A DNA stretch of 56,491 nt from Opitutaceae bacterium (lineage in GTDB: Bacteria > Verrucomicrobiota > Verrucomicrobiia > Opitutales > Opitutaceae). The stretch covers positions 1 to 56,491 of the forward strand of contig JANQKU010000139.1 in NCBI GenBank assembly GCA_028280955.1, written 5' to 3'. The translations under genes and the position numbers were made by a program. The notes under the pieces were generated by a model. The model had not been told where the DNA came from. It saw only the letters and a list, made by a program, of their open reading frames with translations, and made no database searches. Of this stretch, positions 35,532 through 52,795 are shown one piece after another (positions within the stretch are counted from its first letter, which is position 1; each line of letters starts with the position of its first letter).

Positions 35532-38165
35532 CTAGAGCTCGCGCTTACTAAACATGTCTTTTGACTGTCCTTTGTCGCTACCAAAAACGATTCGTGATTC
35601 ATAAAGTTTTCGAATCGATTCGGCCAGTTTTTGCACGCGCACTGGCTTAGCAAGAAAGCCATCCATTCCCGCAGAGTAAGCATCAATGCGAGCTTGCTCA
35701 AACGCATTTGCCGTGACCGCCACGATATCGATATTTTTTTGGTCTTTGTTAATCTTGCCTGATCGGATTTGCTTCGTGGCTTCAATACCATCCATTTCTG
35801 GCATCAAATTGTCCATGAGAATCAAATCATAATGCTGAACCTCAAGACGGTTTAAGACCTCCACTCCATTCACTACAAAATGAGGATCGTAGCCCATTTT
35901 CTGGAGGATTTTACCGATTAGCTTCTGGTTAATCAGGTTATCTTCTGCAACCAATATGCGCGTTGGATAAAGCTTACCCCACTCGCTGAACTGACCCACT
36001 TTTTCCTTTTTCTTGCCGCGATCGAGAGTGGTTCTGTTCACGATCTTTTTTACCTCGATGGTAAAGGCAAACGAAGAGCCTACGCCAATTTCAGAGTTCA
36101 AAGTGATCTCACCGTTCATACCCTCGACTAAGCGTTTGCAGATGACCAATCCGAGACCGCTTCCCCCAAATTTTCGATAGGTCGAGGTGTCAGCCTGAGT
36201 AAATGGGCTAAAAAGCTTTTTCGCATTTTCTTGAGAAATACCGATTCCAGTATCTTTCACTTCAAACCTCAGTAGGTGATAATTCAAGTCACTGGCATTT
36301 CCTTCCGCCAAAGAGACCTTCAAGGAAACACAACCTTCCAAGGTAAATTTGACTGCGTTGGAGCATAGATTCATTAAAATCTGTCGGATCCTGCTTGAAT
36401 CACCATTCACCATCACTGGAACCATTTCATCAACAATGACTCGGTATTCCAACCCCTTGATCTTGGCCTGAGGTTCGATAATCCCACAAACATCTTCCAC
36501 ACACTCTCTAAGATCAAATGGATGCATTTCCAGCTCCAACTTATTGGACTCAATTTTGGAGAGATCTAAAATATCCTCGACGATGAATAATAGAGAGTCA
36601 CTGTTCGATATGATTGCTTCAACATACTCTTTTTGCTCCTTCGAGAGGCGGGTTTCTTCCATCAACTTCGCAAAGCCAGTGATACCATTGAGGGGAGTTC
36701 GGATCTCGTGGGTCATCGTTGCGAGAAACTCACTCTTCGCCTGGTTCGCCTTTTGAGCTTCTTCATTTGCAACTGAGAGCTTCTCCAATGTTTGATTAAG
36801 CAGGTTCGATCTTAAATTGAGCCAATGAACCAAAGTGCCTAATTCATCCTGTCTGGGCGTGCTAAAATAAACCGCCTTGTGTTCCTCGTTTTCTACCGCC
36901 GCTTCAAGCTCGTTTTGAACTTTTGCAAGGGGGGAAATATAACTTCTGTAAATTACCGCCAAAGCAAGCGCAGTAGCTATGACAAAAATGACCACAATCC
37001 AGAAAAGCAAAGATTGGTAAAACTCTCTAAATTGCTGATGAAAGTGCCTGTATTCGCTTACCAAGACGATTTTCCAGAAGGTCTCCGGAACGAGGTAAAT
37101 GGATACAATCGACCGACCATCAACCAAGATGTCAGCTTCGGCTACAAACTGCCTCACGGAACTCTCCCCGTGGGTCACAGGGTCATGTAACATGAAACTG
37201 ATCGTTTTTGCTTCGTCCTCCGCGATCTGATAACTCTCCGTGGCGATCAATTTAGCCTCCTCAAGTATCTCGTCAGTCCAGAGAGACAAATCGCTTCTAC
37301 TGCTAACGTCTTTGATCGATTCGGAAATGCTGAGGAACTCAGGGTCCATTTCGGCGAGATCAGATGCTTTTATATACTCTTTTTCACGGATGAGAGGATA
37401 CTTCTGATACTCTTTCGGAAAACTTAGAAACTTTCCATTCCTATCCACTGCAAATGCATACCCGGGTTGCGCCTGCGTAATTCGCTCCAGCAGTTGATTC
37501 ATCCCTGATAGCTTAATATCGATCGTCGCCACACCGTAAAAAAGCCCATCTCGGTACATCGGAGCAGTACATGTGACCATCGGCTCCATTGAATAGGGAT
37601 CCATGTAAGATTTTGACCAAAATACTTTCCTGTTTTTCAAATATTTGGCTGGAACATACCACTCTTCATTGTGGTATCCGTTACCTTCGGGATCGTTGTA
37701 ATCATCGTAGTATTCGAGAAGCCCTCTGCTATTTCTCCCCCAAAAGAAACTTCTACGCTCCAGCGCTGGATCAAATAACCACGGTTCCGGCCATATCCCT
37801 CCCCCAGCGATAATGTCGACCGACGCATTGTGATCGATGAGAGAAGAGAGCTGCTGACGGCTGTAATCGCTGTCTTCAAATATCGTTTCTCCGAGTCTGG
37901 CAAGTGAGATTGCGAGCGCCTCTGTTGCATGGATTTGCCCTTTTACTTTTGAGACAATCGCATCTCCTGACTTTTCGATAGATTGATAGGTCTGATCTTC
38001 CAGATAGTCCTTCACCCAAAATTCCATCAAAACGAAGAAAGAAGAAATGAGTAGAAGCAAGAGACCCAAAAAAATCAAAGGGATGCGGACCACCAATGAA
38101 TTTCTCCATTTCTTTCGATGTATTAAGGCTTTTTCAACCACTGAAATTGGTGCTTCTTTTTTCAC
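35532..38165 (-). CDS. Hybrid sensor histidine kinase / response regulator with Cache-like periplasmic domain
   Basis: Two TMs flank a ~330-aa sensor domain. H-box 'FLATMTHEIRTPLNGI', N/G boxes 'NLCSNAVKFT', 'DTGIGI', 'GGSGLGL'. C-terminal REC 'ILVAEDNLINQ...DLILMDNLMPEMDG'. Confidence 0.9.
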   Translation of the reverse strand: MKKEAPISVVEKALIHRKKWRNSLVVRIPLIFLGLLLLLISSFFVLMEFWVKDYLEDQTYQSIEKSGDAIVSKVKGQIHATEALAISLARLGETIFEDSDYSRQQLSSLIDHNASVDIIAGGGIWPEPWLFDPALERRSFFWGRNSRGLLEYYDDYNDPEGNGYHNEEWYVPAKYLKNRKVFWSKSYMDPYSMEPMVTCTAPMYRDGLFYGVATIDIKLSGMNQLLERITQAQPGYAFAVDRNGKFLSFPKEYQKYPLIREKEYIKASDLAEMDPEFLSISESIKDVSSRSDLSLWTDEILEEAKLIATESYQIAEDEAKTISFMLHDPVTHGESSVRQFVAEADILVDGRSIVSIYLVPETFWKIVLVSEYRHFHQQFREFYQSLLFWIVVIFVIATALALAVIYRSYISPLAKVQNELEAAVENEEHKAVYFSTPRQDELGTLVHWLNLRSNLLNQTLEKLSVANEEAQKANQAKSEFLATMTHEIRTPLNGITGFAKLMEETRLSKEQKEYVEAIISNSDSLLFIVEDILDLSKIESNKLELEMHPFDLRECVEDVCGIIEPQAKIKGLEYRVIVDEMVPVMVNGDSSRIRQILMNLCSNAVKFTLEGCVSLKVSLAEGNASDLNYHLLRFEVKDTGIGISQENAKKLFSPFTQADTSTYRKFGGSGLGLVICKRLVEGMNGEITLNSEIGVGSSFAFTIEVKKIVNRTTLDRGKKKEKVGQFSEWGKLYPTRILVAEDNLINQKLIGKILQKMGYDPHFVVNGVEVLNRLEVQHYDLILMDNLMPEMDGIEATKQIRSGKINKDQKNIDIVAVTANAFEQARIDAYSAGMDGFLAKPVRVQKLAESIRKLYESRIVFGSDKGQSKDMFSKREL

Positions 38166-38368
38166 CTTTCGGCTAACGAGTTAAAATAGTAAGAGATGAA
38201 AACTGCGGTTTTTGGCAAACCTCACGAACAGTTTGTAAAACGGCCCTTCCTATCTTGTCCTGGTTGATGAACGGCAAATTACTCTCAAGCCTAACTACAA
38301 AAGCTGGAGAACTCACAAAAATCTTCCAAATTCAGGAGATTCTTAAACAAGAAAACTCACCACAGCGC

Positions 38369-39664
38369 CTAAAATTTGATTCGAAGGAAGCCAATTAAGC
38401 ACATTTTGAATAGCTTAATGCTATCCCTAAAACGACTGATGTTGGTATCCCCATAAGTTCTAGCCCTGTAAGTGATTGGGATGTCGACGATTCCGAGTTT
38501 TAATACCGAAGCGGGAAATATCATTTCATAATCCCCAAATGGATCAAAATCTCCAAAATCTGTATTCCACTGCCTGATTCGATGATAGTCCTCCCTCGAA
38601 AACATCTTCGTTCCGCATAACGAATCACTAATCTGGATATCCAAAATCACACTTAACAATTTCGCGAAAAAAATGTTTCCCACATGATTGATAAAACGCA
38701 TCGCGTCTTTTTCCATGGGGTAGACCAACCTACTTCCGTTAACAAAATCAGCCAATCCACTTTGGTAAGCTTCATAATATCGAGGCAGATCCTCAGCAGG
38801 CATCGTTAGGTCCGCATCAAGAATGGTGACAATATCCTTCGTCGCGTGATGAAACCCTACTCTGACAGCATCCGCTTTTCCTTTTCCGGGTTGCTGAAAC
38901 GCCATCATTGAAAAACGTTCAGTAAACTCAGGCATTTGGATGCATTCATTAATCTTCGCCCAAGTGTGATCAGTAGAATTCCCCTCAACAAATATGACTT
39001 CGATATCTTTTGTAAAAGGAGGAATCGATTTTAGGATGTTCTCGATGTTTCCCTCTTCATTCCGAGCCGCAACGATGATGCTGATACTCTTTTCTTCAGA
39101 CTCGGGCTTCACAGGCCTGAGGTAAGCGATCGAAGTAATCGCCAAGCGATTGACAAGGGGAGTTACCCGAAACAACCGGTTGATAAAAGTGCCTATTCCT
39201 AACAGATGAAAGGGGAAGAAATAAAAACGTGAGATCCGCACAACCTCAAAACCTGAGATTTTGCAGAAGTTTTCCAAAACTGTCTGTGTTACGAAATTTT
39301 GCGTATCATTCGCTTTCGTGAGGCCGAGAGCATTAGTGATTCGATAGAGCCATTGGAGGTAAGGATTGTAGAGAATCGCCGCAACTCTGAAAGAACGATT
39401 TGCGTTTTTGTAGAGTGCATCGAGCTTAATCTGAATGTCCGAATCGACATTAAAATCACCATCAAGAATATGAAGGTGGGTGCCTTCACTACTTTGATCT
39501 ACCGAACCCGTTGACGCGAGAATCTTAAACTTTCGACTAAGGAATTCATACAACTTCTGCTTACCGGAATCCTGACCAATCGGTAGCGTAATCTTGTCAA
39601 AATAGGGACATATTTGGCTGACCTCTCTCGCAATTGCCCGTTTAAGATTTTTCTGAAAAAACAT
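38369..39664 (-). CDS. Glycosyltransferase family 2 with ~200-aa N-terminal extension
   Basis: 'ISIIVAARNEEGNIENIL.SIP....DIEVIFVEGNSTDHT', 'ILDADLT'. ATG at 39664 preferred over the longer ORF. Confidence 0.75.
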   Translation of the reverse strand: MFFQKNLKRAIAREVSQICPYFDKITLPIGQDSGKQKLYEFLSRKFKILASTGSVDQSSEGTHLHILDGDFNVDSDIQIKLDALYKNANRSFRVAAILYNPYLQWLYRITNALGLTKANDTQNFVTQTVLENFCKISGFEVVRISRFYFFPFHLLGIGTFINRLFRVTPLVNRLAITSIAYLRPVKPESEEKSISIIVAARNEEGNIENILKSIPPFTKDIEVIFVEGNSTDHTWAKINECIQMPEFTERFSMMAFQQPGKGKADAVRVGFHHATKDIVTILDADLTMPAEDLPRYYEAYQSGLADFVNGSRLVYPMEKDAMRFINHVGNIFFAKLLSVILDIQISDSLCGTKMFSREDYHRIRQWNTDFGDFDPFGDYEMIFPASVLKLGIVDIPITYRARTYGDTNISRFRDSIKLFKMCLIGFLRIKF

Positions 39665-39780
39665 GATGAATCGACAGGTGCTAAAGAGCACTGAATACTC
39701 GGGAATAGGCCTTTTGCGCAACAACTAATTTGTTCTTCTAAAAAAACACACCGACGATTAAGCGCTCCTGATTAGCCAAC

Positions 39781-40254
39781 TCAAAGCATAACCCATTTCG
39801 AAATTACGGCAGCCTGGCCGCAACAGTCACCCTCGGCGTTGATTAGATTCCACACAGTTGCCTCTTCAATCCGAAACCTTTTTCCAGTCGCTGACATTCT
39901 GACTCCCGAATAATTCTCAATGTAACCTTTCGCGGTCACCTCCGCCAATAGCCTTGCTCTTTCCTCCCTGTTGGGTAGTTCAGCAGATTTTCGAGAAGGA
40001 AGATTAGTAAGCTCCTCAAATGACATCTCAAAAAGCTCCAATGCGCACCGATTTCCGTAATTGAAAACAGGATCTTCCTCAGTTCCGTGGGAAACCAGTG
40101 CAAAATCCACTTTTTCAAACAGGATTGGAAGAGTATCGAGCTGATCATACTCAATTAGGATCTTCCCTGTCAGTCGCTCATAGGATTTTACTAGCAACTC
40201 CAAATGATCGGAAACCGAATCGTATCGATATTTTTCTACCTTTCTCATCATCAA
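39781..40254 (-). CDS. MEKHLA domain-containing protein
   Basis: 'DPVFNYGNRCALELFEMSFEELTNLPSRKSAE...REERARLL.EVT.KGYI.NYSGVR.S.TGKRF.IE.ATVWNL' matches the MEKHLA (PAS-like) pattern from memory. Confidence 0.65.
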   Translation of the reverse strand: MMMRKVEKYRYDSVSDHLELLVKSYERLTGKILIEYDQLDTLPILFEKVDFALVSHGTEEDPVFNYGNRCALELFEMSFEELTNLPSRKSAELPNREERARLLAEVTAKGYIENYSGVRMSATGKRFRIEEATVWNLINAEGDCCGQAAVISKWVML

Positions 40255-40268
40255 CCCTCTTTAGGAAA

Positions 40269-41729
40269 TTACATACCCACATACCGGTAAACACCTTCCA
40301 GGTCCAAATGCTCCTCAAGGAGATCCGCCATCTGCGAATAGGTCTGCTGCTTGTGCTCCCACCAATCCTGCACCCCGACCTCATAACCTGATATCCCAGC
40401 AACTTCGCAAAGAGCCAAACGCGTGCAAGAGTTCTCAAAAAGGCCGTGAAGATAAGTTCCCCACACGCTTCTGTCCTGACTTCCCTCTTCCCTCGCCCCA
40501 TCACCATCTTTCACTTTCAGCAAGGCATTCAAAGTGCATATCGCTCGGGAATGTCCCATGTGGATCTCGTAGCAATTCCAATTTTCAGCACCCCAGATCG
40601 CCTGAACCTGAGTCAGTCGTTTTTCCTTAGAAAACTCAGTTACAATCGGGAGTAAACTAAGGCCTTCCACCTCGCCGGAACGCCCAGCTTCACCGCCTGG
40701 GTCCAGCAATCTTTCACCAAGCATCTGATAGCCACCGCAAATCCCAACCACGGGAATCCCTTCCCTAGCTTTACGGATGACCATGTCGGCAATACCTGAA
40801 TCACGAAGCCACTGCAAATCTGCAATCGTGTTTTTTGATCCAGGCAAAACAATTGCACTCGCCTGCTCCAGCTCGTCTATGCTCCTCACCCATCTGGCCT
40901 GCACACCTTCATCCAGGCTCCAGGGCTGAATATCCTGAGTGTTGGAAACCCTTGGATAGCACACCCAAGCGATCAGTGGTTTGTGGCTTTGACTTCGGGA
41001 AATTCTCGATTCGACTGTAAATCCATCCTCCGTCTCCGGCTGAAGATCATAACGCATCGGAAGCACTCCCAAATACGGGGTCGAAACGTGTTTGCTGAAA
41101 TATTCAGCTGCACCATCAAACAACGTGGGATCCCCTCGAAACTTGTTCACAACCAAACCCAATCCCCTGCTCTGGTCCTCCTCAGGCATGAGTTTCACTG
41201 TGCCCGTTGCCTGAGCAAAAACTCCTCCTCTCTCGATATCGCAAGCCAACAGCCATTTTCCGTCTAGATATCGAATCGGCATGAGATTCACTATATCTCG
41301 GTCCATCAGGTTCAGCTCCACAGGGCTACCCGCTCCTTCCAGCAACAATAAATCACAACGACTCTTCCACCACTCGAGAGTCTCCTGAACCGTTTCCCAG
41401 AGCGGATGAATGCCCTCGTAAAAGCTCTGTGCTTTCATGTGAGGTCCGGGAGCCCCCAATCGAACAACTTGCGAGGTGGTGTCACCGCTAGGTTTCAAGA
41501 GAACAGGATTCATCTCGGCGATCGGGCGGAGTCCGCACGCTTCCGCCTGCACCGCCTGTGCGCGTCCGATTTCACCACCCTCGACCGTCACGAACGAATT
41601 GTTCGACATGTTTTGCGCCTTGAACGGAGCGACCTTCACTCCTTTTCGACGCATCAAGGCACAAAAGGCGGTGTTCAACCAGCTTTTCCCGGCATCTGAT
41701 GAAGTACCCAATATCGAAATTGACTTCAT
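40269..41729 (-). CDS. cobQ: Cobyric acid synthase
   Basis: '[18 protein letters not shown]....[19 protein letters not shown]' and a C-terminal GATase domain '[10 protein letters not shown]'. The alternative start at 41747 would overlap the upstream gene. Confidence 0.9.
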
Positions 41730-41733
41730 CCGA

Positions 41734-42744
41734 CTATTTCTCATCAAACATGCCCGACAAGATGCGATTCAGAGCCTCCAAAGTATCGCATTTTCGCTCA
41801 CCGATACTCCATTCAAATCTCCCCGCATCGACTTTTGACACCAAAACAGACGGTTCCACCTCCGACTCGGCCACACCAACACCAATCTTCTCCAAAGCAT
41901 GTTTGGTCCACTTCACACCGACCGAATCACCTTCAAGACTCACTTGGTGCTTCAGCTCAGTTTTGCCTTTGAAATGTCCGCTTTCCGAATCAAACCCAAG
42001 CTCCTCATTCCCAAACACTTCAGCAATCGAACCATCCAGAAGCAAATCTTCAGGCAAACCCTTCTTCACACCAGACACACGATTCATCAGCCACAATTCG
42101 TCCGAGTATTGAAGCGCTAGTTGCAGGTCGTGAGTACTGATCAACAGGGTCAAATTACACTCCTTCACCAGCTTTCGAAGGATATGCATCAATTCGATTT
42201 TGTGCATCAGGTCCAGAAAGGCTGTCGGCTCATCCATGTAGATCAGTGGAGTTTCCTGAGCTAATGCTCTGGCAATCGAAACCCGTTGCTTTTCACCATC
42301 ACTGAGCGTATGGATCATGCGGTCTTTTAGCAGCTCCAGTCGCACCGCAGAAATCGCCCATTCCACTTTTTCTTGATCCTCCTCACTGTAACGTCCCGTC
42401 CACTTGGTGTAGGGATGGCGCCCCAGCGCAACCAGTTCCCACACCCGCAAAAGTCCTGAAAAGCTTTGATTCGTGAGAACTACGCTGAAGACCTTCGCCC
42501 TCCTCGCAGGATTTCTAAATAAGGATTCATCGCCATTGTAAGCAATCCTGCCACTCATCTCAGGGATTAATCCTGTGAGGGTTTTGATGAGTGTGCTTTT
42601 CCCAGTGCCATTAGTCCCCATCAAACAGGTCAGAGAGCCCGAATCCAGTGACAAATCGAGTGATTCGTACAGAGGAGCCCCACCTGTCTTCGCGTAACCG
42701 ATGGAAAGATCTTCAGTCCTTAAAATCTCTTTTGTCGCACTCAT
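41734..42744 (-). CDS. Iron-siderophore/cobalamin-type ABC importer ATP-binding protein with ~90-aa C-terminal extension
   Basis: '[10 protein letters not shown]', '[17 protein letters not shown]', '[12 protein letters not shown]'. Overlaps the permease gene by 4 nt. Confidence 0.85.
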
Positions 42745-43808
42745 CCGTTACCAAAAGCGCTTCTTAAGCTTCTTCTTCCCAGCAATATCCAAATCACCAC
42801 CGGAGCCCCAATCAGCGAGGTGATGGAGTTGAGTGGCAAAACCAATCGGCTACCCGGGACTTGAGCAATAAAATCTGCCATCAGAGTCAACAGCCCACCA
42901 TAAAGGATTACCGCGGGATACAAAATACGATGATTCGAGGTTTGAAACATCGATCGGCACAAGTGAGGAACAGCCACTCCAATGAAGCCTACCGGTCCGC
43001 AAAATCCTACTACCACACCCGTCAGCAGCGAGGTGCTGATCAATACCCAAGTCCTCCACTTGATAATCGATACACCCATGCTTCTGGCGTAAGCCTCTCC
43101 CAGCAAAAACGCATTCATCGCCTTGCCAGCGATCCAAGCCATCAATATCCCGAGCACAACCACTGGGGCAAGGATACTGATCTGATCCCAGGTCACGTGA
43201 CTTAAATTGCCGTAACCCCACGCGAAAAAGGTCTGAAGTCGTTCGGGAATAGCAAAAAACACAAGCACCATCACGAGAGCAGAGGTCGCATAACCCATCA
43301 TGAGTCCAACGATCAACAAGGTCATCAGGTCCACCCGGAAGGAAAGCACCATGATCAAAGTCAACACCATTGCCGAACCGAGCGAGGACGCCACGACCAC
43401 GGCATAGTTTCCCGCAACTCCCATTCCACTCAGCAAAGAAGCCAGGCCAGGTCCAGTGATGAGTACCACGATGGCCACTCCCAGGCTTGCTCCGGAATTA
43501 ACGCCCAGGACAAACGGGTCCGCCAGGGGATTTCGAAACAAGGTCTGCATCTGTAGACCCGCTACCGCTAAAGCAGCCCCGGCAAGAACCGCAGTCAATG
43601 CCTTGGGAAAACGGATCGACCAAATGATGTTCGCCAGGCCCTGGTTTTCGTATCCGGATCGATCGAGGAGAATGGAACTCACATCGCCAATCGGGATCTT
43701 CACCGAACCAAACGAAAGACTAACTCCCAGAAGCGCCACAAGAAGCAACACTCCGGCTATCCAAAAATAAAAATGTCTTCGGTGATGAGCTGACGAAAAC
43801 CGTTCCAC
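42741..43808 (-). CDS. FecCD/BtuC-family ABC importer permease
   Basis: About 10 TM segments. 'RFPKALTAVLAGAALAVAGLQMQTLFRNPLADPFVLGV', 'GVVVGFCGPVGFIGVAVPHLCR'. Confidence 0.9.
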   Translation of the reverse strand: MERFSSAHHRRHFYFWIAGVLLLVALLGVSLSFGSVKIPIGDVSSILLDRSGYENQGLANIIWSIRFPKALTAVLAGAALAVAGLQMQTLFRNPLADPFVLGVNSGASLGVAIVVLITGPGLASLLSGMGVAGNYAVVVASSLGSAMVLTLIMVLSFRVDLMTLLIVGLMMGYATSALVMVLVFFAIPERLQTFFAWGYGNLSHVTWDQISILAPVVVLGILMAWIAGKAMNAFLLGEAYARSMGVSIIKWRTWVLISTSLLTGVVVGFCGPVGFIGVAVPHLCRSMFQTSNHRILYPAVILYGGLLTLMADFIAQVPGSRLVLPLNSITSLIGAPVVIWILLGRRSLRSAFGNG

Positions 43809-43817
43809 AAAAAACGA

Positions 43818-44933
43818 TTATTCCAAATTTCGATAATAGTAAAGTTCCGGTTCCGGAAATTGCTCTGGATGAAGAATTTGGATCAAATCATGGAGCACCA
43901 CATCGGGCCGGACCGATCCGGATTCGAAAAAATCACGGCCACCGCGTTCGTGAATTCTCTTATTGTTGTTAAAAACCTTTCCGTTCTTCACGACGTCCAA
44001 AGCAGCAAATCGCGCATCCTGAGAACACAACTCCGTAATGCTGCTCGACTGTCCCGTGTTGAGCCAGTAGTCCGCTTTCAAAACGCGCTCATAAGCGACC
44101 TCAAACGCGACCGGAATCGCTCGATTACCATCCAGATCATCCCAGAGGTAGTCACCACCTGCGTCACGAACCAAATGCGCGGCATAGGTGTCTGTCTGTC
44201 CGACATACCAAGCGTCACCCCAGGGGGCATTCAGCATGACTTTCGGTCGATCCTCGACTGATGACCATTCCGACTTCAGCTGAAGATACTTTTCTTCGAC
44301 ATCTGAGAAAAACACCTCTGCTTCCTCTGTTTTATCAAAAAACATCGCGAAAAACTTGATCCATTCCGCACGACCCAGCGGACTTTGCTCCATCCACGAA
44401 GAAGTAAGGATCATCGGAATCCCCATTCTCTGAAATTTGGAAAACAAGGGAGAGTCGGTTTCACCACTCGCGCTCAGGAAAACTCCATCGGAATTCATCG
44501 CAACCACCATTTCAGAGTTCATTGCAGGCCCCATCCCAATTTCCGCGATTTTTCCCTCGTCGATCAGTCGATGGACATTCTCGTCATTTACAAATTTCTT
44601 CGATGAGAAACCCACCATGCGATCATGGAGATCCAGAACGTTGAACTTACCCAGATGGGTGGAAGAAAACAAAACTGCCCGCTGCAGAGGAATCCTCACG
44701 ATCTGAGTATCTACATCCGAATTCACGTCAGTCGTTTCACCTTCGCGAAGTAAGATGTAGCTCATCACAAGATCATTCGGATCACAGTTTTGATAAACTT
44801 CCATCCGAGTCGGCTCACCTTCTTCTTCAAATACCTTAAAATTCAAAGCGTGCCGAACTTCGACCGCACTCAGAGCCAGCCCCATACTCAACGTCGCTAA
44901 CAATGATGCCCAACTGGTAATCTTTTTAATCAT
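43818..44933 (-). CDS. Periplasmic substrate-binding protein of the B12/siderophore (cluster A/class 8) type
   Basis: Signal peptide 'WASLLATLSMGLALSA'. Positioned upstream of the FecCD permease and ATPase genes. Family call rests mostly on context. Confidence 0.7.
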   Translation of the reverse strand: MIKKITSWASLLATLSMGLALSAVEVRHALNFKVFEEEGEPTRMEVYQNCDPNDLVMSYILLREGETTDVNSDVDTQIVRIPLQRAVLFSSTHLGKFNVLDLHDRMVGFSSKKFVNDENVHRLIDEGKIAEIGMGPAMNSEMVVAMNSDGVFLSASGETDSPLFSKFQRMGIPMILTSSWMEQSPLGRAEWIKFFAMFFDKTEEAEVFFSDVEEKYLQLKSEWSSVEDRPKVMLNAPWGDAWYVGQTDTYAAHLVRDAGGDYLWDDLDGNRAIPVAFEVAYERVLKADYWLNTGQSSSITELCSQDARFAALDVVKNGKVFNNNKRIHERGGRDFFESGSVRPDVVLHDLIQILHPEQFPEPELYYYRNLE

Positions 44934-44952
44934 GCCTACATAAAGTGAATAA

Positions 44953-45134
44953 TGGATGAGTGCTGGTTAACAAAATCGCGGAAGATCTGCCCTCTCGAAC
45001 TACGTCGAACCGAGGACGATCCGCCCTACCCGATCTTCCGTGGATCCACTCTCAGGTAGGGCTGACTGTCCCCAGTCAGCCGCATGTTTTACGAACATCC
45101 TGTCCAGCTGCATTTTGAAACCAACACTCATCCA
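44953..45134 (-). other. Highly structured ~180-nt intergenic element between the TonB-dependent receptor and binding-protein genes
   Basis: A 16-bp closing helix (44953-44968 / 45119-45134, 15/16, where the mismatch becomes G.U only in the minus-strand transcript). Nested or interleaved helices CGGAAGATC/GATCTTCCG, GCCCTACC/GGTAGGGC and GGCTGACTG/CAGTCAGCC, plus the palindrome GTGGATCCAC. Confidence 0.4.
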
Positions 45135-45173
45135 CGTTGACGGCAATCTCGTTCTCACGAACGAAAATTAAAG

Positions 45174-47012
45174 TTAAAAGTCCAAATTGATACCCGCTGA
45201 AAACGCCTGCGGAGCTCCATTGTAGCCAAACACCTCAGAGTATTCCTCATCCAACAAGTTATCCACTCTCACCCAGAGGTCAGTGGTTTCGCTCAAGCGA
45301 TAAGTCACAGCAAGATCCACAGTGGTGAAACTATCGAGAGGTCCCGACCAGTCTTCACGGTCGTCCATGTAGTTCGCAGCCAAACGCACGAGCAGGTCGT
45401 CATTCAAGAACTCCTGATCGATGATGATGCTCGTAGAGGTCTCTGGAGACTGGAGAATAAGCGAATCCCCGGTTTTTTGACGCTCAGTGTCGGCAAAGGT
45501 CTGAGAAACCTTGATTCGAGTATCCGCCCCCAGGTCATAGTGCACAAAAACCTCCACTCCCGAGCTCACCCAGTCCACGTTTGCAAAGCTGAAAGTGCTA
45601 CGCAAAAATTCAACTTTGTCACTCACATCGATGTTAAAATAAGCCACCCCAGCGGTCAGCGCACCACTCTCAGAGGTCCATTCGACACCAAGGTCGTAAC
45701 TGGCACCTGTTTCAGCCACGAGATCAGGATTTCCAAAGGATCCGAACAACTGGGAAATCTCAGGAGCGTCGAAACCCGTTCCATAGGTCCCGCGGACGCG
45801 GATTCCTGAATCAGCGACTTGATAGGAAAAAGAAGTCCGCCAAGTCGTCTCACTTCCAAAAGCGTCGTTGTCATCGATGCGTGCGCCCAAGGTCACAGTA
45901 AGCGCATCATTTACATCATACACATTTTCAAGAAATAGAGATTGCGTCTCCATTTCGTAGTCACCCATCACATCCTTTGCCATTTCGCTTTCCGCTCCAA
46001 CGAACAACGCATAATTGTCGGCGATCACGATGTTATTTAGCAGTTCAAATTTCAGCATCTCTGCTTCACTGTCACTTGCACCCCATCCATCGTTACGGAA
46101 ACTGTCCAGGTTAGTATAAGTGACGGCCACTGACGCATTCCAATTTTCATTCAGCTCCGCATTAGCTTCACCCTTTACGAGCAGCTGCTTGTCGTGTGTG
46201 TAGTTGTCCGCAATCGGAGTGGACCAAGGTGACGGTGTGCCCGGATCATAGTCACTCTCAGAGTCGCGATAGTGAAGGACGAGCGAAAGATCGATTGTTT
46301 CGGTTACCTCGGCACCCAGGCGGCCGTGCAGCACGGTGTTACGGTAGGCATCATTGTCCGCCCACTCAGGTCCATATTCCTCAGGCTGCGAAGAATATCC
46401 GTCGGTCTCGTAATGACTCAGTTGAATCTGATAATCGAACTGGCCAAGATCGGCGGATGTTCCCAAATACGCGGAATAGGTCTTGTGTGAACCATAACTC
46501 AGACCTGCTTGCGTGGTCGTTTCTCCCTCTACTGCTCGCTTGCTTTGAAGGCTGATCACACCTGTCAATGCGTTCGCACCGTAAAGCGCACTCTGCGCAC
46601 CATGCAAAACCTCCACTCTCTCAAGCAACGAAGCAGGCATGTTTCCAAAATTATAAACAAATCCGCTCGCTGGATTATTGATTTCGATTCCGTCTAACAA
46701 CACGAGAGGCGCGATCGGCAATCCTCTCATGGAGATTCCCGGTGAGTTTCCCGCACCACCAGTGTTACGGATGTAAACACCCGTCACGTGACGAAGAGTT
46801 TCACTCGCAAGTTGAGCTTGGTGAAACTCGATCTCCTCAGCATCAAAAACGGTAACTGATGCTCCCACCTTCCCCAATGGTAGTTCAAAGCGGCTTGCTA
46901 CAACCGTGTAACTCTCGAGATCTACGATCTTTTCATTCTCCTGAGCCGACAAGTGAGAGGCAATCGCCACAAAACCTGTTAAAACCCATTTTCCGATATT
47001 CTTTCTTTGCAT
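45174..47012 (-). CDS. TonB-dependent outer-membrane receptor (BtuB-like by context)
   Basis: Signal peptide, TonB-box-like 'ESYTVVASRFE', plug motifs 'IRNTGGAGNSPGISMRGL', C-terminal '...AFSAGINLDF' ending in Phe. Confidence 0.9.
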   Translation of the reverse strand: MQRKNIGKWVLTGFVAIASHLSAQENEKIVDLESYTVVASRFELPLGKVGASVTVFDAEEIEFHQAQLASETLRHVTGVYIRNTGGAGNSPGISMRGLPIAPLVLLDGIEINNPASGFVYNFGNMPASLLERVEVLHGAQSALYGANALTGVISLQSKRAVEGETTTQAGLSYGSHKTYSAYLGTSADLGQFDYQIQLSHYETDGYSSQPEEYGPEWADNDAYRNTVLHGRLGAEVTETIDLSLVLHYRDSESDYDPGTPSPWSTPIADNYTHDKQLLVKGEANAELNENWNASVAVTYTNLDSFRNDGWGASDSEAEMLKFELLNNIVIADNYALFVGAESEMAKDVMGDYEMETQSLFLENVYDVNDALTVTLGARIDDNDAFGSETTWRTSFSYQVADSGIRVRGTYGTGFDAPEISQLFGSFGNPDLVAETGASYDLGVEWTSESGALTAGVAYFNIDVSDKVEFLRSTFSFANVDWVSSGVEVFVHYDLGADTRIKVSQTFADTERQKTGDSLILQSPETSTSIIIDQEFLNDDLLVRLAANYMDDREDWSGPLDSFTTVDLAVTYRLSETTDLWVRVDNLLDEEYSEVFGYNGAPQAFSAGINLDF

Positions 47013-47032
47013 TTGTAGTCAGTTGAAAATCC

Positions 47033-47088
47033 TTAATGACAATTAAATGTCATTTACACTAAAACACTTTAATGACACTTCCATGTCA
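47033..47088. promoter_or_regulatory. Two copies of a TTAATGACA-N5-ATGTCA palindromic operator-like site in the divergent receptor/regulator intergenic region
   Basis: TGACA-ATTAAA-TGTCA (47037-47052) and TGACA-CTTCCA-TGTCA (47073-47088), centres 36 bp apart. On the minus strand, site 2 contains a perfect TTGACA. Confidence 0.35.
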
Positions 47089-47213
47089 AATAATTTTCCT
47101 CAGAATTTTGAAGGTTTTTTGGGAATTGTCTCTATAAAGTGCTTTGAGTATCCTGCTCACATCAATTCCATTTAGTTTGGCATTCTTGAGATTCTAAATT
47201 CTGTATTCTGCGT

Positions 47214-48587
47214 ATGACCACCACCCCAGCCCCTCAGATATCTTTGTTACTCGCAGATGACGATGCGGGCATCATCACTTCTGGTAAAATGCTTTTTGAA
47301 GATGAGGGTTGGTCCGTAAGCGTCGCGAAATCGGTCGCAGAGGTGATTCGTAAGGTCGAAAAGCAGGAGTTCGATGTTGCGTTGGTGGACATGAACTACA
47401 CGCGCGACACCACCAGCGGCGCTGAAGGACTTGAGCTGATTTCCAAAGTCCACGAGATTGACCCGGATCTACCCATACTCGTCATGACGGCGTGGGCGAC
47501 TATCGACATCGCAGTCGAAGCTCTCAAGCGCGGCGCTAGTGATTTCATTCCCAAGCCTTGGGAAAACGACAGGGTGGTTCAAAAAGTCTCCAAAATGGCG
47601 CTGAACACACGTTCCCTACGCAAGGGACGCCTTCTCCAGGCGGAGGCCGAGCTCCACCGACAAGAAAATATTCCTGACGACTTCATTGCCCACTCACCCG
47701 CCATGCAAAACGTCATGCAAATCGTCAACAGCATCGGTCCATCCGAAGCGAATGTAATGATTCTCGGAGAAAACGGCACTGGCAAAAGCGTGATCGCGCA
47801 GTTGATTCACGGAATTTCCCATCGAGCGGAAGGTCCTTTTATCAGTGTCAACATGGGCGGTCTCGCAGAGGGGCTTTTTGAAAGTGAGATCTTTGGCCAT
47901 GTAAAAGGAGCATTCACCGACGCCAAGGCAGACCGAGCTGGCAGATTCGAGATCGCACGCGGCGGCACCATCTTCCTCGATGAGATTGGAAACATCACTT
48001 TAAACCAACAAAACCGTCTGCTCCGGTTGCTTGAAACGGGCGAATTCGAACGTGTTGGTTCCTCCCGCACGATCAAAACAGACGCTCGTGTGATTTCGGC
48101 CACCAACGCTCCGCTCAAAGAGAAAGTCGCAGATAAGTCCTTCCGAGAGGATCTCTACTACCGGCTCAACACGGTCATCATCGACATGCCACCGATGCGG
48201 GACCGTCGGGAGGATGTCCTTCCCCTCGCCCACCATTTCCTCTCCCGCCTGAATCGCAAGTATCGCAAATCGATCCGCAAATTCAGTTCACAGGCGGAAA
48301 AAGTGCTGCTCGACTACCACTGGCCGGGAAATGTGAGGGAGATGAATCACGCCATCGAGCGAGCAGTCCTCATGTGCCACACCGACGAGATCCACGCACA
48401 GCAACTCATGCTGGAAGCGACGACTTCCAGCCCGGCAGACATCGAATCCATGAGCATGGAGGACATCGAGAAGCTCCTGATCCAAAAAGCCCTCAAACGC
48501 AACGGAGGCAACGTCACCGCAGCCGCCAAACAACTCGGTCTCAGCAGAGCCACCTTCTACCGCCGTTTACAGGACTACGGAATATGA
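47214..48587 (+). CDS. Sigma-54-dependent response regulator (NtrC family: REC-AAA+-Fis HTH)
   Basis: 'LLADDD...DVALVDMNY', 'GENGTGKS', 'GAFTDA', 'ETGEFERVGSS', C-terminal 'AAKQLGLSRATFYRRL'. Confidence 0.9.
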   Translation: MTTTPAPQISLLLADDDAGIITSGKMLFEDEGWSVSVAKSVAEVIRKVEKQEFDVALVDMNYTRDTTSGAEGLELISKVHEIDPDLPILVMTAWATIDIAVEALKRGASDFIPKPWENDRVVQKVSKMALNTRSLRKGRLLQAEAELHRQENIPDDFIAHSPAMQNVMQIVNSIGPSEANVMILGENGTGKSVIAQLIHGISHRAEGPFISVNMGGLAEGLFESEIFGHVKGAFTDAKADRAGRFEIARGGTIFLDEIGNITLNQQNRLLRLLETGEFERVGSSRTIKTDARVISATNAPLKEKVADKSFREDLYYRLNTVIIDMPPMRDRREDVLPLAHHFLSRLNRKYRKSIRKFSSQAEKVLLDYHWPGNVREMNHAIERAVLMCHTDEIHAQQLMLEATTSSPADIESMSMEDIEKLLIQKALKRNGGNVTAAAKQLGLSRATFYRRLQDYGI

Positions 48588-49927
48588 GAAAAAACAGTAG
48601 CTTCTTTCGCTTCATCCCGCTACAGCTCCAGCTATTCATTCTCGGGATTTTGCTAGCGGTCCCGGCGCTGCTTATCATTTGGTATCTTTACACGACCAGG
48701 CGACCCAGCGACGAACTCATGGCCGTTTTCTGGTTTGCCTACCTCCTCTGGAGCGCAGGCATTCTTTTTCAGATGTGGCGCGCCTGCCACGAGCCCTTTT
48801 ACACACTTACCAACCTCGTTCGCTCCCTGCACCAGGGCGACTACAGCCAGAGGCTCATTCAGTACCCCAAATGGCACGCCATCGGATACCTTCACGAGGA
48901 ACTCAACACGCTCGCCGACGTCCTTCAGAACAACCGCATCGCGACCATCGAATCCGTGAGGAGATTTCAGTACCTCATCGACCAACTTGAGATCGGTGTC
49001 GTCGCATTTGATGAGCAGAAAAAGCTCACCATGATCAACTCGCACCTTTCCAAATATTTCGGCAAGCATTCTTCCGAACTTAATGAAAAACACATAAGCG
49101 ACCTTTCACTGGAATCCCTCTGGGAATGCAAAAGCGGCCGCACTTTGTGGCTCACGTTCGAGCAACGCACTTCACGTTTTCTGATCCACAGTTCCGTTTT
49201 CAGAGACGATGGAAAACCTCATCGACTCTTTCTCCTCACGGACGTCAATGCACCTCTTCGTGAAGAAGAACGCTTCGCGTGGAAGCGCCTCATCCGAGTC
49301 CTCGGGCATGAGCTCAACAACTCCCTCACCCCCATCATCTCACTCACTTCCTCTCTGAAATCCCGTTTTGAAAAGCTCGACATGCCTGAGCAGCAAAACG
49401 AATCCACGATGGAAGCGCTCGACGTCATTCGGGAACGCGCTCTTGGCATGAATCGCTTCGTGGAGGACTATTCCAAACTTGCGAAACTCCCCGAACCGAA
49501 CCGTCAGATATCTTCGCTCACTGAGATCGCACGAAAGCTGCGACAACTGATGGAGACTAACCACTTCAAAGTCGTCGAAGGTCCCGATTGCGAACTCCAC
49601 GTCGACACCGATCAGATCACCCAACTTTTCATCAACTTAATCAAAAACGCCGAGGAATCTGTAGATCCACAAAACGGCGAAATTATGATGACGTGGCGCC
49701 GCGAATCGACGGACGCAGTCATCACCGTCGACGACAACGGCCCCGGCATCGAAAAACTGGAAAACCTCTTTGTCCCCTTCTTCTCCACCAAACCCGGCGG
49801 CAGCGGAATCGGCCTCGTACTCTGTCGTCAAATCGCCGAAGTCAACGGCGGCTCTATCGACATCCAAAACCGCGATTCCGGCGGCTGCCGCGCGACCATC
49901 TGTCTGCCTATTTACTCTGAGAAATAG
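48584..49927 (+). CDS. Sensor histidine kinase (NtrB-like partner)
   Basis: ATGA overlap with the regulator stop. Two TMs, H-box 'LGHELNNSLTPI', 'DDNGPGI', 'GGSGIGLVLCRQI'. The longer ORF-track start at 48374 overlaps the regulator out of frame and is rejected. Confidence 0.85.
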   Translation: MRKNSSFFRFIPLQLQLFILGILLAVPALLIIWYLYTTRRPSDELMAVFWFAYLLWSAGILFQMWRACHEPFYTLTNLVRSLHQGDYSQRLIQYPKWHAIGYLHEELNTLADVLQNNRIATIESVRRFQYLIDQLEIGVVAFDEQKKLTMINSHLSKYFGKHSSELNEKHISDLSLESLWECKSGRTLWLTFEQRTSRFLIHSSVFRDDGKPHRLFLLTDVNAPLREEERFAWKRLIRVLGHELNNSLTPIISLTSSLKSRFEKLDMPEQQNESTMEALDVIRERALGMNRFVEDYSKLAKLPEPNRQISSLTEIARKLRQLMETNHFKVVEGPDCELHVDTDQITQLFINLIKNAEESVDPQNGEIMMTWRRESTDAVITVDDNGPGIEKLENLFVPFFSTKPGGSGIGLVLCRQIAEVNGGSIDIQNRDSGGCRATICLPIYSEK

Positions 49928-50168
49928 AAGTTCATTTATTAATGAACAAGCGGGTTTTCGCAGTTTCGATATTTTTATATTTCATCAAATCAAGACTCTA
50001 CTGACAGCAAGATCATAATCAAATATCCTGTTGATAATCAATATCTTACAACTTTTATTTGCATTAGAATAATACTTCCTTAAAATCCAACTTAATGCCT
50101 CTAAACACCTTTCAAATTCTCCAATATACCCGCTAAAAAGTGGGTTATAACTACTGTTGTAAACAAAA

Positions 50169-50582
50169 ATGAAAAAAATGAAGATAGAAGTGTCTTTGAA
50201 GCAGGCTTGCACTTCCCTTTTCAAAAATCAGCCGAACCTCTATTCCTTTACCAGTCTCACTGGCCAAACCGAATGGAATTTGACGCATCATCTTTCCAAT
50301 GAGATCAGAACGTTTTTTGAAGATTACGATTGTGATCTCGATATATCAAAAAGGAATTTAGGAAATAAACGCCCAGATATCGTAATTCACAAACGAGACT
50401 CGAATACCGACAATCTGTTGGTGGTCGAAGTTAAAAGAAATGGAAAAAAATCAAAAATAAATGATGACATCAAAAAGATTAAAATAGACTGGTTTAATTC
50501 GGACCTTTCTTATCATTTTGGGGCGACGATTAATTTGAAAGATGATATGGATTTTGAAGTGAAAGTCTTTGAAAATAAATAG
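50169..50582 (+). CDS. Cassette 1: small PD-(D/E)xK nuclease-fold protein (hypothetical)
   Basis: 'KRPDIVIHKR(7)LLVVEVKR' fits the D...(D/E)xK restriction-endonuclease-like motif. 137 aa, followed directly by an attC. Confidence 0.5.
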   Translation: MKKMKIEVSLKQACTSLFKNQPNLYSFTSLTGQTEWNLTHHLSNEIRTFFEDYDCDLDISKRNLGNKRPDIVIHKRDSNTDNLLVVEVKRNGKKSKINDDIKKIKIDWFNSDLSYHFGATINLKDDMDFEVKVFENK

Positions 50583-50649
50583 TTGTAACAAGACGGCGGA
50601 GAGGAACTGCCAGACCTCCGGCCTCTTGTCCCTCACCTTAACGTTCGCA
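50583..50649 (+). repeat. attC site 1
   Basis: TTGTAAC-AAGACGGCGGAGAGG...CCCTCACCTTAAC-GTTCGCA. Arms pair imperfectly with bulged bases. Shares AACAAGACGG and GTCCCTCACCTT(A/G)ACGTT with attC 7. Confidence 0.7.
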
Positions 50650-50657
50650 AAAAATAA

Positions 50658-51350
50658 ATGCCTCAACGAATCACAGGTAAGCTCCTCTCTCAAAAGTGGA
50701 AAGTTGATGTAAAGCATGCCCTCTACAGTCATGATGGAACATGGTACCATCGCCTTAAAGATTTTCCTGGAGCATTGTTTGATTCATCTGGTTTCGTGAT
50801 ATTCAACACAAAGGATGAGTTTGAAGGGTGTCCAAGTTTGAGACTGAAGAAAGATTGCGGTTGCAGGTTTGGCATTTCGACCATCGACGGATATGTCAGA
50901 GTTCGAAACTTCGAAGCGTCTGATGTCAAAGATGATCAAGAAATTGAAAGAAAAGAGACTTTCGTTTCGAGGATTATTAGAGATACGAACCTCAGCAGAG
51001 AATTGAAATTAGAGTATGAAGATCAGTGTCAGATCTGTGGTGTCACAGTCAAATTATTCGACGGAAGTTATTCCGAGGCTCATCATATCATTCCTTTAGG
51101 ATCACCACATAATGGAACAGATAACAAAGATAATTTGATAGTGGTTTGTCCCACGTGTCACGTAAAGATGGATTATTTTTCTATCCCTCTTTCATTGATG
51201 GATTTGAAAGTTCTAGGTCATACCATTTCAGAAGAATCTGTAGAATATCACAACAATCAATACGCGAACAAGATAGGCGAGAGGGATTCTGAACCGCTCC
51301 GCGTGTCATCAATCCCTCCCTTTGAGGTTGTCTCCAAAAAAAGAATCTAA
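50658..51350 (+). CDS. Cassette 2: HNH endonuclease with uncharacterised ~130-aa N-terminal domain (McrA-like architecture)
   Basis: 'CQICGVTV(10)EAHHIIPLGSPHNGTDNKDNLIVVCPTCH' HNH/His-Me finger. The 3' end of the ORF runs through attC 2. Confidence 0.85.
   Translation: MPQRITGKLLSQKWKVDVKHALYSHDGTWYHRLKDFPGALFDSSGFVIFNTKDEFEGCPSLRLKKDCGCRFGISTIDGYVRVRNFEASDVKDDQEIERKETFVSRIIRDTNLSRELKLEYEDQCQICGVTVKLFDGSYSEAHHIIPLGSPHNGTDNKDNLIVVCPTCHVKMDYFSIPLSLMDLKVLGHTISEESVEYHNNQYANKIGERDSEPLRVSSIPPFEVVSKKRI
51263..51333 (+). repeat. attC site 2
   Basis: CGCGAAC-AAGATAGGCGAGAGGGATT...AATCCCTCCCTTTGAG-GTTGTCT. R'' GCGAAC is the reverse complement of GTTCGC at the start of this cassette (50643-50648). 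Confidence 0.7.
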
Positions 51351-51394
51351 ACGAATAAAGTCCTCAGAATTTCATATAACTAAACCAAGAAAAC

Positions 51395-51859
51395 ATGAAA
51401 AAAACAATCATCCTTCTAGCATATATTCTCCTGGCCAGCATACTAAATGCTGGTAGTGGCAGTGCAACTGCTCCTTATTGGCAAAAACTCGAAACGTTTC
51501 AATTAACGACAATCTCGCTTACAAACATAAGTAGTGAAAATGTTACTGTCTTTATCATGCTAAAAGACATAGATGGTATCGCCTACGATGAAAGCTCTGA
51601 AAATGGAACAAACATTGAAATTGGGTCAAATTTTTCGGGTGATCCTCTGTCTAATAACGGAGCCTTGCTTGAAGCTGGAAAAACGGGAACATTAACGATT
51701 AAGGATACCGGTAATCTGAAAACCGGCTACAGCACAATTGAGTGGGTTTCAAACGGAAGTAACATTAGAGCCCTTGTGGGAGTAACGACTCATGTTGTTA
51801 AAGGAGACGCCTCACATGACTTCAATCACATGTTGATAAACAACGGATTGCCTTTCTAA
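51395..51859 (+). CDS. Cassette 3: secreted hypothetical protein
   Basis: Signal peptide 'MKKTIILLAYILLASILNAGSGSA' and a beta-rich mature part. No family recognised. Confidence 0.6.
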   Translation: MKKTIILLAYILLASILNAGSGSATAPYWQKLETFQLTTISLTNISSENVTVFIMLKDIDGIAYDESSENGTNIEIGSNFSGDPLSNNGALLEAGKTGTLTIKDTGNLKTGYSTIEWVSNGSNIRALVGVTTHVVKGDASHDFNHMLINNGLPF

Positions 51860-51868
51860 AAAAAGACC

Positions 51869-51934
51869 CGACAACAAGGTGCTTGAGGTAATCCTGCTCA
51901 CTTGTTCGCGGATTACCTCAGCTAGACATTAGTG
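51869..51934 (+). repeat. attC site 3 (core G replaced by A)
   Basis: CGACAAC-AAGGTGCTTGAGGTAATCC...GGATTACCTCAGCTAGAC-ATTAGTG. Perfect 10-bp inner stem. R'' GACAAC complements GTTGTC at 51327-51332. R' reads ATT instead of GTT. Confidence 0.65.
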
Positions 51935-51966
51935 TGAAAGATTTCTCAAATTCGTCATAAATATTC

Positions 51967-52058
51967 GGTCAAAGCAGTACTGACCACGTTGTCAAAGGGG
52001 TTTTGAACGAACGGTCAAAGCCCATTTGACTGAGTGGTCAAAGAGCATTTGAAAAAGA
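51967..52058 (+). repeat. Four tandem 23-bp direct repeats (iteron-like) inside ORF-less cassette 4
   Basis: Units start at 51967, 51990, 52013 and 52036: GGTCAAAGCAGTACTGACCACGT / TGTCAAAGGGGTTTTGAACGAAC / GGTCAAAGCCCATTTGACTGAGT / GGTCAAAGAGCATTTGAAAAAGA. Each has an internal GTCAAA..TTTGA(C/A) dyad. Confidence 0.75.
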
Positions 52059-52175
52059 GTAAAAATTGAAAAGAAGCCACTCCTCTGTTAAAAAGAATTG
52101 ATCCCGTACCACGCTAAAAGTTTATTGGTTCTGCTCCACGAATCACATCAACCTCATCCCCAATTTTACAAAAAG

Positions 52176-52234
52176 CACTAACAAGACGGTGGGTTAAACT
52201 CTGCTTTGCTCCGTTCACCACATTGACGTTGGCA
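52176..52234 (+). repeat. attC site 4
   Basis: CACTAAC-AAGACGGTGGGTTAAAC...GTTCACCACATTGAC-GTTGGCA. R'' CACTAAC is the exact reverse complement of (G)TTAGTG at the start of cassette 4. Confidence 0.65.
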
Positions 52235-52794: not shown

Positions 52795-52795
52795 A

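Follow-up and report, generated by a model that had tools for sequence, protein, structure and literature searches.

How a strongly folding stretch of DNA comes to lie between a TonB-dependent receptor gene and the genes of a B12-type importer, and whether it is a ligand-sensing RNA, another regulatory structure, or repeat DNA, is the question raised by a 56,491-nucleotide contig of an Opitutaceae bacterium (JANQKU010000139.1, assembly GCA_028280955.1). We refer to the whole contig as the window and, where a label is needed, to contig and assembly as C175 and G000. The element in question, an imperfect palindrome of 182 bp, occupies the 240-bp gap 44934-45173 between two minus-strand genes, and runs from 26 nt past the stop codon of the receptor gene to 19 nt ahead of the ATG of the binding-protein gene. 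An original prediction, made from the letters of the sequence, had listed its helices and proposed a variant ligand-sensing leader, an internal attenuator or processing site, or an insertion resembling repetitive extragenic palindromes (REPs) or miniature inverted-repeat transposable elements (MITEs). Based on the comparisons presented here, we favor, with a probability of roughly 0.78, the reading that the element is a tail-to-tail heterodimer of GTAG-tagged REPs nested in a longer, locus-specific palindrome.

A family of GTAG-tagged hairpins dispersed in Opitutales genomes

REP units of the family found in the window are dispersed, multicopy, and covarying hairpins in several Opitutales genomes. 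In the window itself, two such units on opposite strands make up the core of the element (45004-45081), with their GGTAGGG tags facing inward (Table 1). At 27 nt, both fall within the size range of a short palindromic stem-loop unit (20-40 bp), and both carry the unpaired GTAG at the hairpin end, with GGTAG directly before the stem. The perfect 9-bp hairpin that the original prediction had placed at 45060-45081 is the stem of REP1, in which 45060-45068 pairs with 45073-45081 at nine of nine positions around a 4-nt loop. In the sense RNA, the REP2 stem of the window forms only if two G.U pairs are allowed; at the same locus of the nearest genome (L033 of genome G167), it reads CGGATCG / CGATCCG, a perfect 7-bp stem.

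We searched for relatives of the element in 400 other genomes of the order (401 with G000), using reversed patterns as controls. A BLAST search of the element against the 400 genomes returned the full-length element at the same locus of G167 (96% identity), another, partial copy in that genome with 78% identity across the inner 86 nt, and fragments of ∼30 nt with 88-91% identity in four further genomes. All of these fragments span the 9-bp hairpin together with CCCTACC; on the opposite strand, they read GGTAG-GGCTGACYG-TCCC-CRGTCAGCC, a GTAG tag followed by a hairpin, and thus have REP architecture. The pattern GGCYGACNGNNNNCNGTCRGCCCTACC, with up to two mismatches, occurs 19 times in G239, 8 times each in G300 and G167, and 4 times each in G414 and G130, compared to 0, 1, 0, 0, and 0 control matches in G239, G300, G167, G414, and G130, respectively. 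A looser expression, GGTAGSGC-N6-TCCY-N6-GCS, which constrains only tag, loop, and stem ends, matched exactly 18 times in G167, 52 times in G130, 8 times in G300, and once each in G239 and G000 (controls: 1, 0, 3, 1, and 0), and in most of the matches listed, the two unconstrained N6 blocks are fully or almost fully complementary. In the window's assembly, REP1 is the sole exact match; the G167 counterparts of REP2 also fit this pattern. The strict REP1 pattern was present in 8 of the 401 genomes, compared to 1 of 401 for its control.

An alignment of 33 copies, with REP1 as its first row, shows a covarying stem: 96.2% of the cells are paired, both partners vary in five of the nine pairs (19 cells), the covariation score was reached by none of 500 shuffles, and all slid registers remained at or below 43% paired. 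The tag, seen as CTACC on the other strand (columns 27-31), is invariant in 33 of 33 copies, which were collected with a pattern that requires CTACC and allows up to two mismatches. The units occur in several arrangements. Dimers with the tags inside were found on three contigs of G167 (C215, C305, and C389), with unrelated spacers of 15-25 nt, and the window spacer is likewise unlike that of the second dimer, on C305. On contig C69 of the same genome, a dimer whose tags are on the outside is located between a stop and the following start, and contig C26 of G130 harbors arrays in which two REP types alternate with a period of ∼158 nt, with single copies at other loci. By a crude open reading frame (ORF) test at 10 loci, 14 of 17 copies do not fall within an ORF of at least 120 amino acids (aa). 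The original prediction had pointed to copies in unrelated contexts as the mark of a repeat; such copies exist for the REP units, but not for the whole 182-bp element, which we found here and at the same locus of G167 only.

Genes resembling REP-associated tyrosine transposases (RAYTs) are present in several of these genomes as well. On contig C27 of G414 (locus L097, 1294-1884), the 163-aa product of one gene matches the full length of NF047646, the NCBIfam profile for this family, with 71.6 bits and an E value of 6e-20 (the equivalog cut-off is 80 bits), and the gene has GGTAGGG-tagged hairpins in inverted orientation on its two sides, GGTAGGG-ACAGCACCA, whose stem differs from that of the window subfamily. 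G167 has three genes of the Y1_Tnp type and G000 has one RAYT-like gene. One of the three in G167, a RAYT-like gene on contig C225 (L101, 822-1590), is flanked by a different family, GTAG-CCGAATCG-GTGA, and one on G130 contig C16 (L102) is accompanied by arrays of GTAG-GACAGGCWGC. We also observed proteins of 300-400 aa with an N-terminal RAYT-like or Y1_Tnp domain of ∼130 aa, encoded at L094 (1465-2448, contig C9 of G000), at L096 (1468-2382, contig C148 of G167), and at several G130 loci; the long C-terminal parts of the L094 and L096 proteins had no Pfam or NCBIfam match. Several open frames of G130, 323-400 aa in length, have partial Y1_Tnp matches.

Table 1. Positions of the element, its parts, and the adjoining genes in the window
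Feature	Position	Strand	Description
Whole imperfect palindrome	44953..45134	-	182 bp; centre near GGATCC (45042-45047); from arm alignment and RNA folds
REP unit 1 (REP1)	45055..45081	+	27 nt; GGTAG tag, 9-bp stem GGCTGACTG / CAGTCAGCC, loop TCCC
REP unit 2 (REP2)	45004..45030	-	27 nt; GGTAG tag, GGCGGATCG, loop TCCT, CGGTTCGAC; stem differs from that of REP1
Spacer	45031..45054		24 nt between the facing GTAG tags; contains GTGGATCCAC and B' GATCTTCCG
Closing helix, 5' arm in sense RNA	45119..45134	-	followed by CAAAAU (45112-45117, plus-strand coordinates); unchanged in L033
Closing helix, 3' arm in sense RNA	44953..44968	-	preceded by AUUUUG (44971-44976, plus-strand coordinates)
Segment B CGGAAGATC	44979..44987		9/9 complementary to B' GATCTTCCG (45032-45040) in the spacer
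8-bp hairpin, GNRA-type tetraloop	45147..45166	-	from folds; begins 7 nt past the receptor stop; without U-tract
TonB-dependent receptor, 612 aa	45174..47012	-	Pfam Plug (1.2e-22) and TonB_dep_Rec_b-barrel (1.6e-34); upstream of the gap
Periplasmic binding protein (BtuF/FhuD-like, Peripla_BP_2), 371 aa	43818..44933	-	Pfam; downstream of the gap

Folding and strain variation of the longer palindrome

An independent repeat search recovered, at the same positions, every helix that the original prediction had listed. The closing helix is 16 nt long and 94% complementary, an inverted 25-nt pair takes in GCCCTACC (45023-45030) and GGTAGGGC (45055-45062), and the palindrome GTGGATCCAC lies at 45040-45049. 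Aligned against each other, the two arms of the whole element form 65 Watson-Crick pairs and 7 G.U pairs in the sense RNA, next to 2 A.C oppositions, 10 transversion mismatches, and 15 gap columns. The outer parts comprise the 16-bp helix, an adjacent 6-bp helix, and weakly paired stretches of 30 nt toward the REPs. The gap is structured far beyond chance on both strands: its minus strand folds at −101 kcal/mol compared to −71.0 ± 4.7 for shuffled sequences (z = −6.4), its plus strand at −82.3 compared to −55.4 ± 4.5 (z = −6.0), and in neither case were any of the 200 shuffles as good. As a 183-nt RNA, the element adopts a rod-like minimum-energy fold in both the window (−89.4 kcal/mol) and L033 (−91.3 kcal/mol). 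In the window, folding REP1 locally costs 1.4 kcal/mol, folding both REPs locally 8.4 kcal/mol, and the alternative that pairs segment B with B' 9.3 kcal/mol (a constrained fold of −80.1 compared to the rod at −89.4).

Two structural claims of the original prediction stand in part. Strand-specific base pairing holds for the single mismatch of the closing helix, C44963/A45124, which is C/A in a plus-strand RNA and G.U in the minus-strand, operon-sense RNA, in L033 as in the window. It does not hold for the element overall, since the energy difference between the strands (19 kcal/mol) mostly reflects base composition, with shuffled means that are already 15.7 kcal/mol apart and a minus strand that is richer in G (57 compared to 40); the 7:2 excess of sense G.U over A.C is suggestive only and not significant (one-sided binomial ∼0.09 by our own arithmetic). 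The interleaved order B-C-B'-C' is likewise present, but what had looked pseudoknot-like arises from the GTAG tags of the two REPs, which face each other (C and C'), together with a piece of the spacer (B') whose match to an outer segment (B) is coincidental.

The comparison of the whole element between strains covers two sequences of ∼96-97% identity, the window and L033. These differ at 8 of the 182 positions, all of them in the inner part, and the flanking aligned blocks, which are mostly coding, are 96.7-96.8% identical (3.2-3.3% differences); the inner part of the element thus drifts at about the flank rate. At 45063, L033 has C for A in the sense RNA, which breaks the REP1 hairpin and lengthens the pairing between REP1 and REP2. 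A double change from G-C to A-U preserves one B/B' base pair, and another change breaks one. Metagenome contigs revealed another strain with a 4-nt deletion inside REP1. The DNA runs that contain the stretch are labelled as coral, coral reef, and marine metagenomes; in the four runs searched for it, no empty-site allele was found, and every contig covering the gap retains the element. The remainder of the gap varies too. Directly past the receptor stop, at window positions 45167-45171, an additional 94 nt are present in L033 (3673-3766) and in a metagenome strain (run X5); this insert is itself an imperfect palindrome (minimum free energy of the RNA, −40.1 kcal/mol), is unrelated to the element, had only its self match in a search of five genomes, and is single-copy in G167. 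The gap therefore tolerates and collects palindromic indels, which differ between strains. In the small GNRA-type hairpin next to the receptor stop, the loop is GUGA in the window and GCGA in L033 and holds the hairpin's sole substitution between strains. As separate observations, small ORFs of 31-52 aa in the gap overlap the palindrome on either strand, and an exact 11-nt direct repeat, ATCCACTCTCA, is found in the spacer of the REP dimer (45044-45054) and in the 3' part of the receptor gene (45261-45271); it may be due to chance, with ∼0.03 such repeats expected per 500 bp by our own arithmetic.

The outer arms may have originated as a low-copy foldback or MITE, as a palindrome that grew around the dimer, or as an older intercistronic hairpin. 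According to the first of these, the closing helix would represent 16-bp terminal inverted repeats of an element that carried the REP dimer or received it later. The repeats, with their single mismatch, agree with this idea, as do the unrelated palindromic insertion in the related strain, which shows that palindromic indels arise in this gap, and the REP dimers reported within long palindromes of Anabaena variabilis and Halothiobacillus neapolitanus in a survey of GTAG-tagged REPs (Di Nocera, De Gregorio and Rocco 2013, BMC Genomics 14:522; PMC3733652). Yet no second copy of the arms was detected in G000, in 60 relatives, or in the 400 other genomes of the order, the flanks (...GAATAA and CGTTGA...) bear no visible direct duplication, and the four metagenome runs contain no empty site. 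We consequently rejected the MITE as an identity for the element and consider a low-copy foldback improbable. The REP/MITE-like insertion proposed originally nevertheless fits, by virtue of the dimer core, which belongs to a multicopy, covarying REP family with occurrences in unrelated contexts.

In a further reading, the element, whatever its origin, would be an exapted intercistronic stem-loop kept by selection. It would be processed by RNase III or RNase E, impede decay, or terminate part of the transcripts, and thereby set the ratio of outer-membrane receptor to ABC importer. The position close to the stop and start of two co-directional genes fits such a role, and REPs are said to have been first described, by Higgins in 1982 and Stern in 1988, as intercistronic elements of transport operons. 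The outer 16- and 6-bp helices are unchanged between the two sequences, all substitutions being inner, the rod energies are kept despite these changes, and no strain that covers the gap has lost the element; the excess of sense G.U pairs points in the same direction. However, at the identity of the two sequences compared, ∼46 unchanged outer nucleotides are expected by chance, the G.U excess is not significant, composition explains the energy difference between the strands, and the REP1 deletion and the 94-nt insert of other strains look like drift in a tolerant spacer. On balance, we regard selection for such a stem-loop as rather unlikely. A bolder version, in which a captured REP dimer was extended to a 182-nt, sense-optimised stem-loop and is now the main post-transcriptional control of a riboswitch-less corrinoid-uptake operon, we consider a long shot; under this scenario, the stem-loop would fix a high receptor-to-importer ratio or respond to an RNase or a RAYT-like protein, and the outer helix would derive from selection, not insertion.

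Returning to the REP heterodimer in a locus-specific palindrome, several observations weigh against this reading: (i) the window's own assembly holds a single match to the family, and GGTAGGG is not enriched in it (216 observed compared to 319 expected); (ii) in the BLAST search of the 400 genomes, no other REP copy turned out to have the 16-bp helix or the outer 50-nt arms, and thus REP biology alone leaves the whole 182-bp palindrome unexplained; (iii) no RAYT was found beside the exact window subfamily (CTGAYYG), including in G167, and G239 and G300 carry copies yet have no Y1_Tnp match at an E value of ≤0.001; (iv) one B/B' base pair is kept through a compensatory change from G-C to A-U, the outer arms are free of substitutions, and sense G.U pairs outnumber A.C by 7 to 2, all of which would fit selection on the RNA; and (v) the effect on the RNA level, a barrier or processing role between receptor and importer, is one that we infer purely by analogy.

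The first of these points depends on which genome the contig belongs to. Over their matching parts, C175 and contigs of G167 are 94-97% identical (88% in one stretch), and the matches extend over nearly all of 30001-50000, but only ∼7.3 kb of 1-20000. G167 is placed in a different family from G000. The first 20 kb of C175 had no match in G001 or G002, the two genomes of G000's genus. Two other G000 contigs show the reverse, with matches of 71-79% identity in G001 or G002 and, in G167, no more than two short fragments of 69-72% identity. G000 lacks counterparts of seven further G167 loci, of which six contain REP copies and one a RAYT-like gene. Composition does not decide the binning, with a G+C content of 42.9% compared to 44.8 ± 1.6% and a tetranucleotide distance that ranks 34th of 130. 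As judged from these sequence matches, C175 was probably mis-binned or the region transferred. With its home genome uncertain, the single copy in G000 is therefore weak as an argument against a repeat. The multicopy check suggested originally, a BLAST search of the element against its own assembly, gave the self match and otherwise chance fragments with E values of at least 0.66, and a search of the 60 relatives gave two chance-level fragments only.

Gene context and the riboswitch question

After the binding-protein gene follow ORFs for a FecCD permease, an ABC ATPase, CobQ, a MEKHLA protein, and a GT2 glycosyltransferase, as identified by a Pfam scan. The MEKHLA-domain protein (157 aa, 39781-40254, E value of 8.6e-52), encoded directly 3' of cobQ and co-oriented with it, is not a usual member of a cluster for corrinoid uptake and salvage. 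Relatives of the binding protein share 33-38% identity in the 60 related genomes, 31-39% on metagenome contigs (7 loci), and 28-42% in species genomes (20 loci), with the exception of L033 at 98%. A promoter and terminator scan called no minus-strand promoter or terminator in the gap, and its sole terminator-like call there is REP1 on the antisense strand.

A variant leader sensing cobalamin or cobinamide and controlling the importer and cobQ was the most specific proposal of the original prediction. Its appeal lies in the presence of btuFCD-like genes and cobQ in the cluster, in the lack of any detected cobalamin riboswitch in the window, so that another control might be expected, and in the interleaved B-C-B'-C' order, which permits alternative folds within ∼9 kcal/mol. 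The remaining evidence is opposed to it. At gathering scores, Rfam gave no match in the whole window, RF00174, RF01482, and RF01689 included. Relaxing the threshold to E ≤10 for 44600-47500 gave four chance-level matches to eukaryotic families and none from the cobalamin clan, and even then no cobalamin riboswitch was found upstream of the receptor gene (47013-47213). With no covariance-model match at either threshold, we rejected a cobalamin riboswitch (RF00174 and its variants) as the element's identity; we found no B12-box-like conserved core either. Further, C and C' are the GTAG tags of a REP dimer that is present at many unrelated loci, the fold is a rod-like palindrome with no conserved unpaired core, and the inner part drifts among strains, with hairpin-breaking changes and, in one strain, the 4-nt deletion. 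We therefore consider a ligand-sensing leader highly improbable. Elsewhere in the assembly, the sole RF00174 match (contig C201, 6047-6201) scores 20.4 bits, below the cut-off of 31.5, and lies ∼2.4 kb from a paralogous binding-protein gene of 38% identity.

Integron attC sites are also imperfect, strand-specific palindromes, and a site of this kind was considered as an identity for the element. No RYYYAAC...GTTRRRY pair of core-site motifs surrounds the element, in a search that was without a positive control, the same expression having found none at 50046-54264 either. A repeat search of that region alone revealed no repeat resembling the element by eye, the element lies away from any cassette boundary, and GTAG-tagged hairpins account for its core. 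We rejected this candidate and give it almost no credence.

Relation to known REP systems and significance

The closest precedent is the survey by Di Nocera and colleagues (PMC3733652), which describes GTAG-tagged REPs in eight phyla and calls Opitutus terrae, of the Verrucomicrobia, "highly enriched in GTAG repeats," with families GTAG-17 to GTAG-20. The survey names dimers with the tags outside HH and those with the tags inside TT, reports homodimers as well as heterodimers whose partners differ in their stems, gives spacers of 20-100 bp, states that dimers may fold separately or into one large stem-loop, and places REPs mostly between unidirectional and convergent genes. It also records REP dimers inserted in long palindromes in three species, the two mentioned above (A. 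variabilis and H. neapolitanus) and T. roseum. On this evidence, the traits of the window element, a TT heterodimer inside a longer palindrome, are all already in print. The family described here resembles the published GTAG REPs in its short hairpin with an unpaired GTAG end tag, in stems of 7-9 bp with compensatory variation, in its repertoire of singles, HH and TT dimers, clusters, and heterodimers with different stems, in its location in gaps between unidirectional genes, in the ability of its dimers to form one fold or two, and in its host, since the Opitutales metagenome-assembled genome of the window belongs to the phylum of O. terrae. It differs in that the dimer sits in a long palindrome restricted to its locus, an association that the survey reports in other species and not in O. 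terrae. The motif had no match in the supplements of the survey; GGTAGGGCTGAYYG-TCCY may belong to one of the families GTAG-17 to GTAG-20 or may represent a further one.

The element also invites comparison with REPINs, in which two inverted REPs and a spacer form a long hairpin that presumably cannot move by itself and depends on a single-copy tyrosine transposase (Bertels and Rainey 2011, PLoS Genet 7:e1002132; Nunvar et al. 2010, BMC Genomics 11:44). The likeness extends to the RAYT-like gene of G414 with its inverted GGTAGGG-tagged REPs. In contrast to REPINs as described there, the window REPs differ in their stems and pair only partially with each other, the spacer is short at 24 nt, and the GTAG tags are inside; the lack of a RAYT beside the window subfamily in its nearest genome is a further difference. 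Cobalamin riboswitches (RF00174, RF01482, and RF01689) share with the element only the genomic context, that is, a TonB receptor, btuFCD-like genes, and cobQ. The element differs from them in having neither a model match nor a B12-box-like core and in its intergenic rather than leader position.

From these comparisons a tentative scenario can be drawn. By analogy with the REP literature, the units would spread as single-stranded DNA hairpins handled by RAYTs. Given its position within a co-directional cluster, the dimer is probably transcribed together with the receptor gene, and the transcript may fold into a stem-loop of ∼180 nt or, alternatively, into two local hairpins that the outer helix encloses. 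In Escherichia coli and Salmonella, REPs and bacterial interspersed mosaic elements between hisJ and hisQ and between malE and malF are reported to stabilise the upstream message. As in those operons, the dimer of the window lies in a binding-protein-dependent importer operon and follows a gene whose product the cell may require in larger amounts; there, the effects were measured, whereas the one proposed here is deduced from position, and the sequences are unrelated except for the GTAG tag. If the analogy holds, the stem-loop might hinder 3'-to-5' decay, be processed, or cause partial termination, so that the internal attenuator or processing site proposed originally would be a mere by-product of a REP dimer in the transcript, and the receptor message would be favored over that of the importer genes, with no ligand sensing implied.

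For this locus, our reading is a clean negative, in that a strongly folding element in a B12-type uptake cluster is repeat DNA and not a new riboswitch class. Such a result spares further work on the locus and warns that, in scans for intergenic structure, REP dimers resemble "pseudoknot-like" regulatory RNAs. Beyond the locus, the present work records, for uncultured marine Opitutales, a REP family with GGTAGGG tags that includes dimers and arrays and is accompanied by a RAYT-like gene. Should it be true that the stem-loop tunes the receptor against the importer, the classic case of REPs in enterobacterial transport operons would be repeated in a distant phylum.

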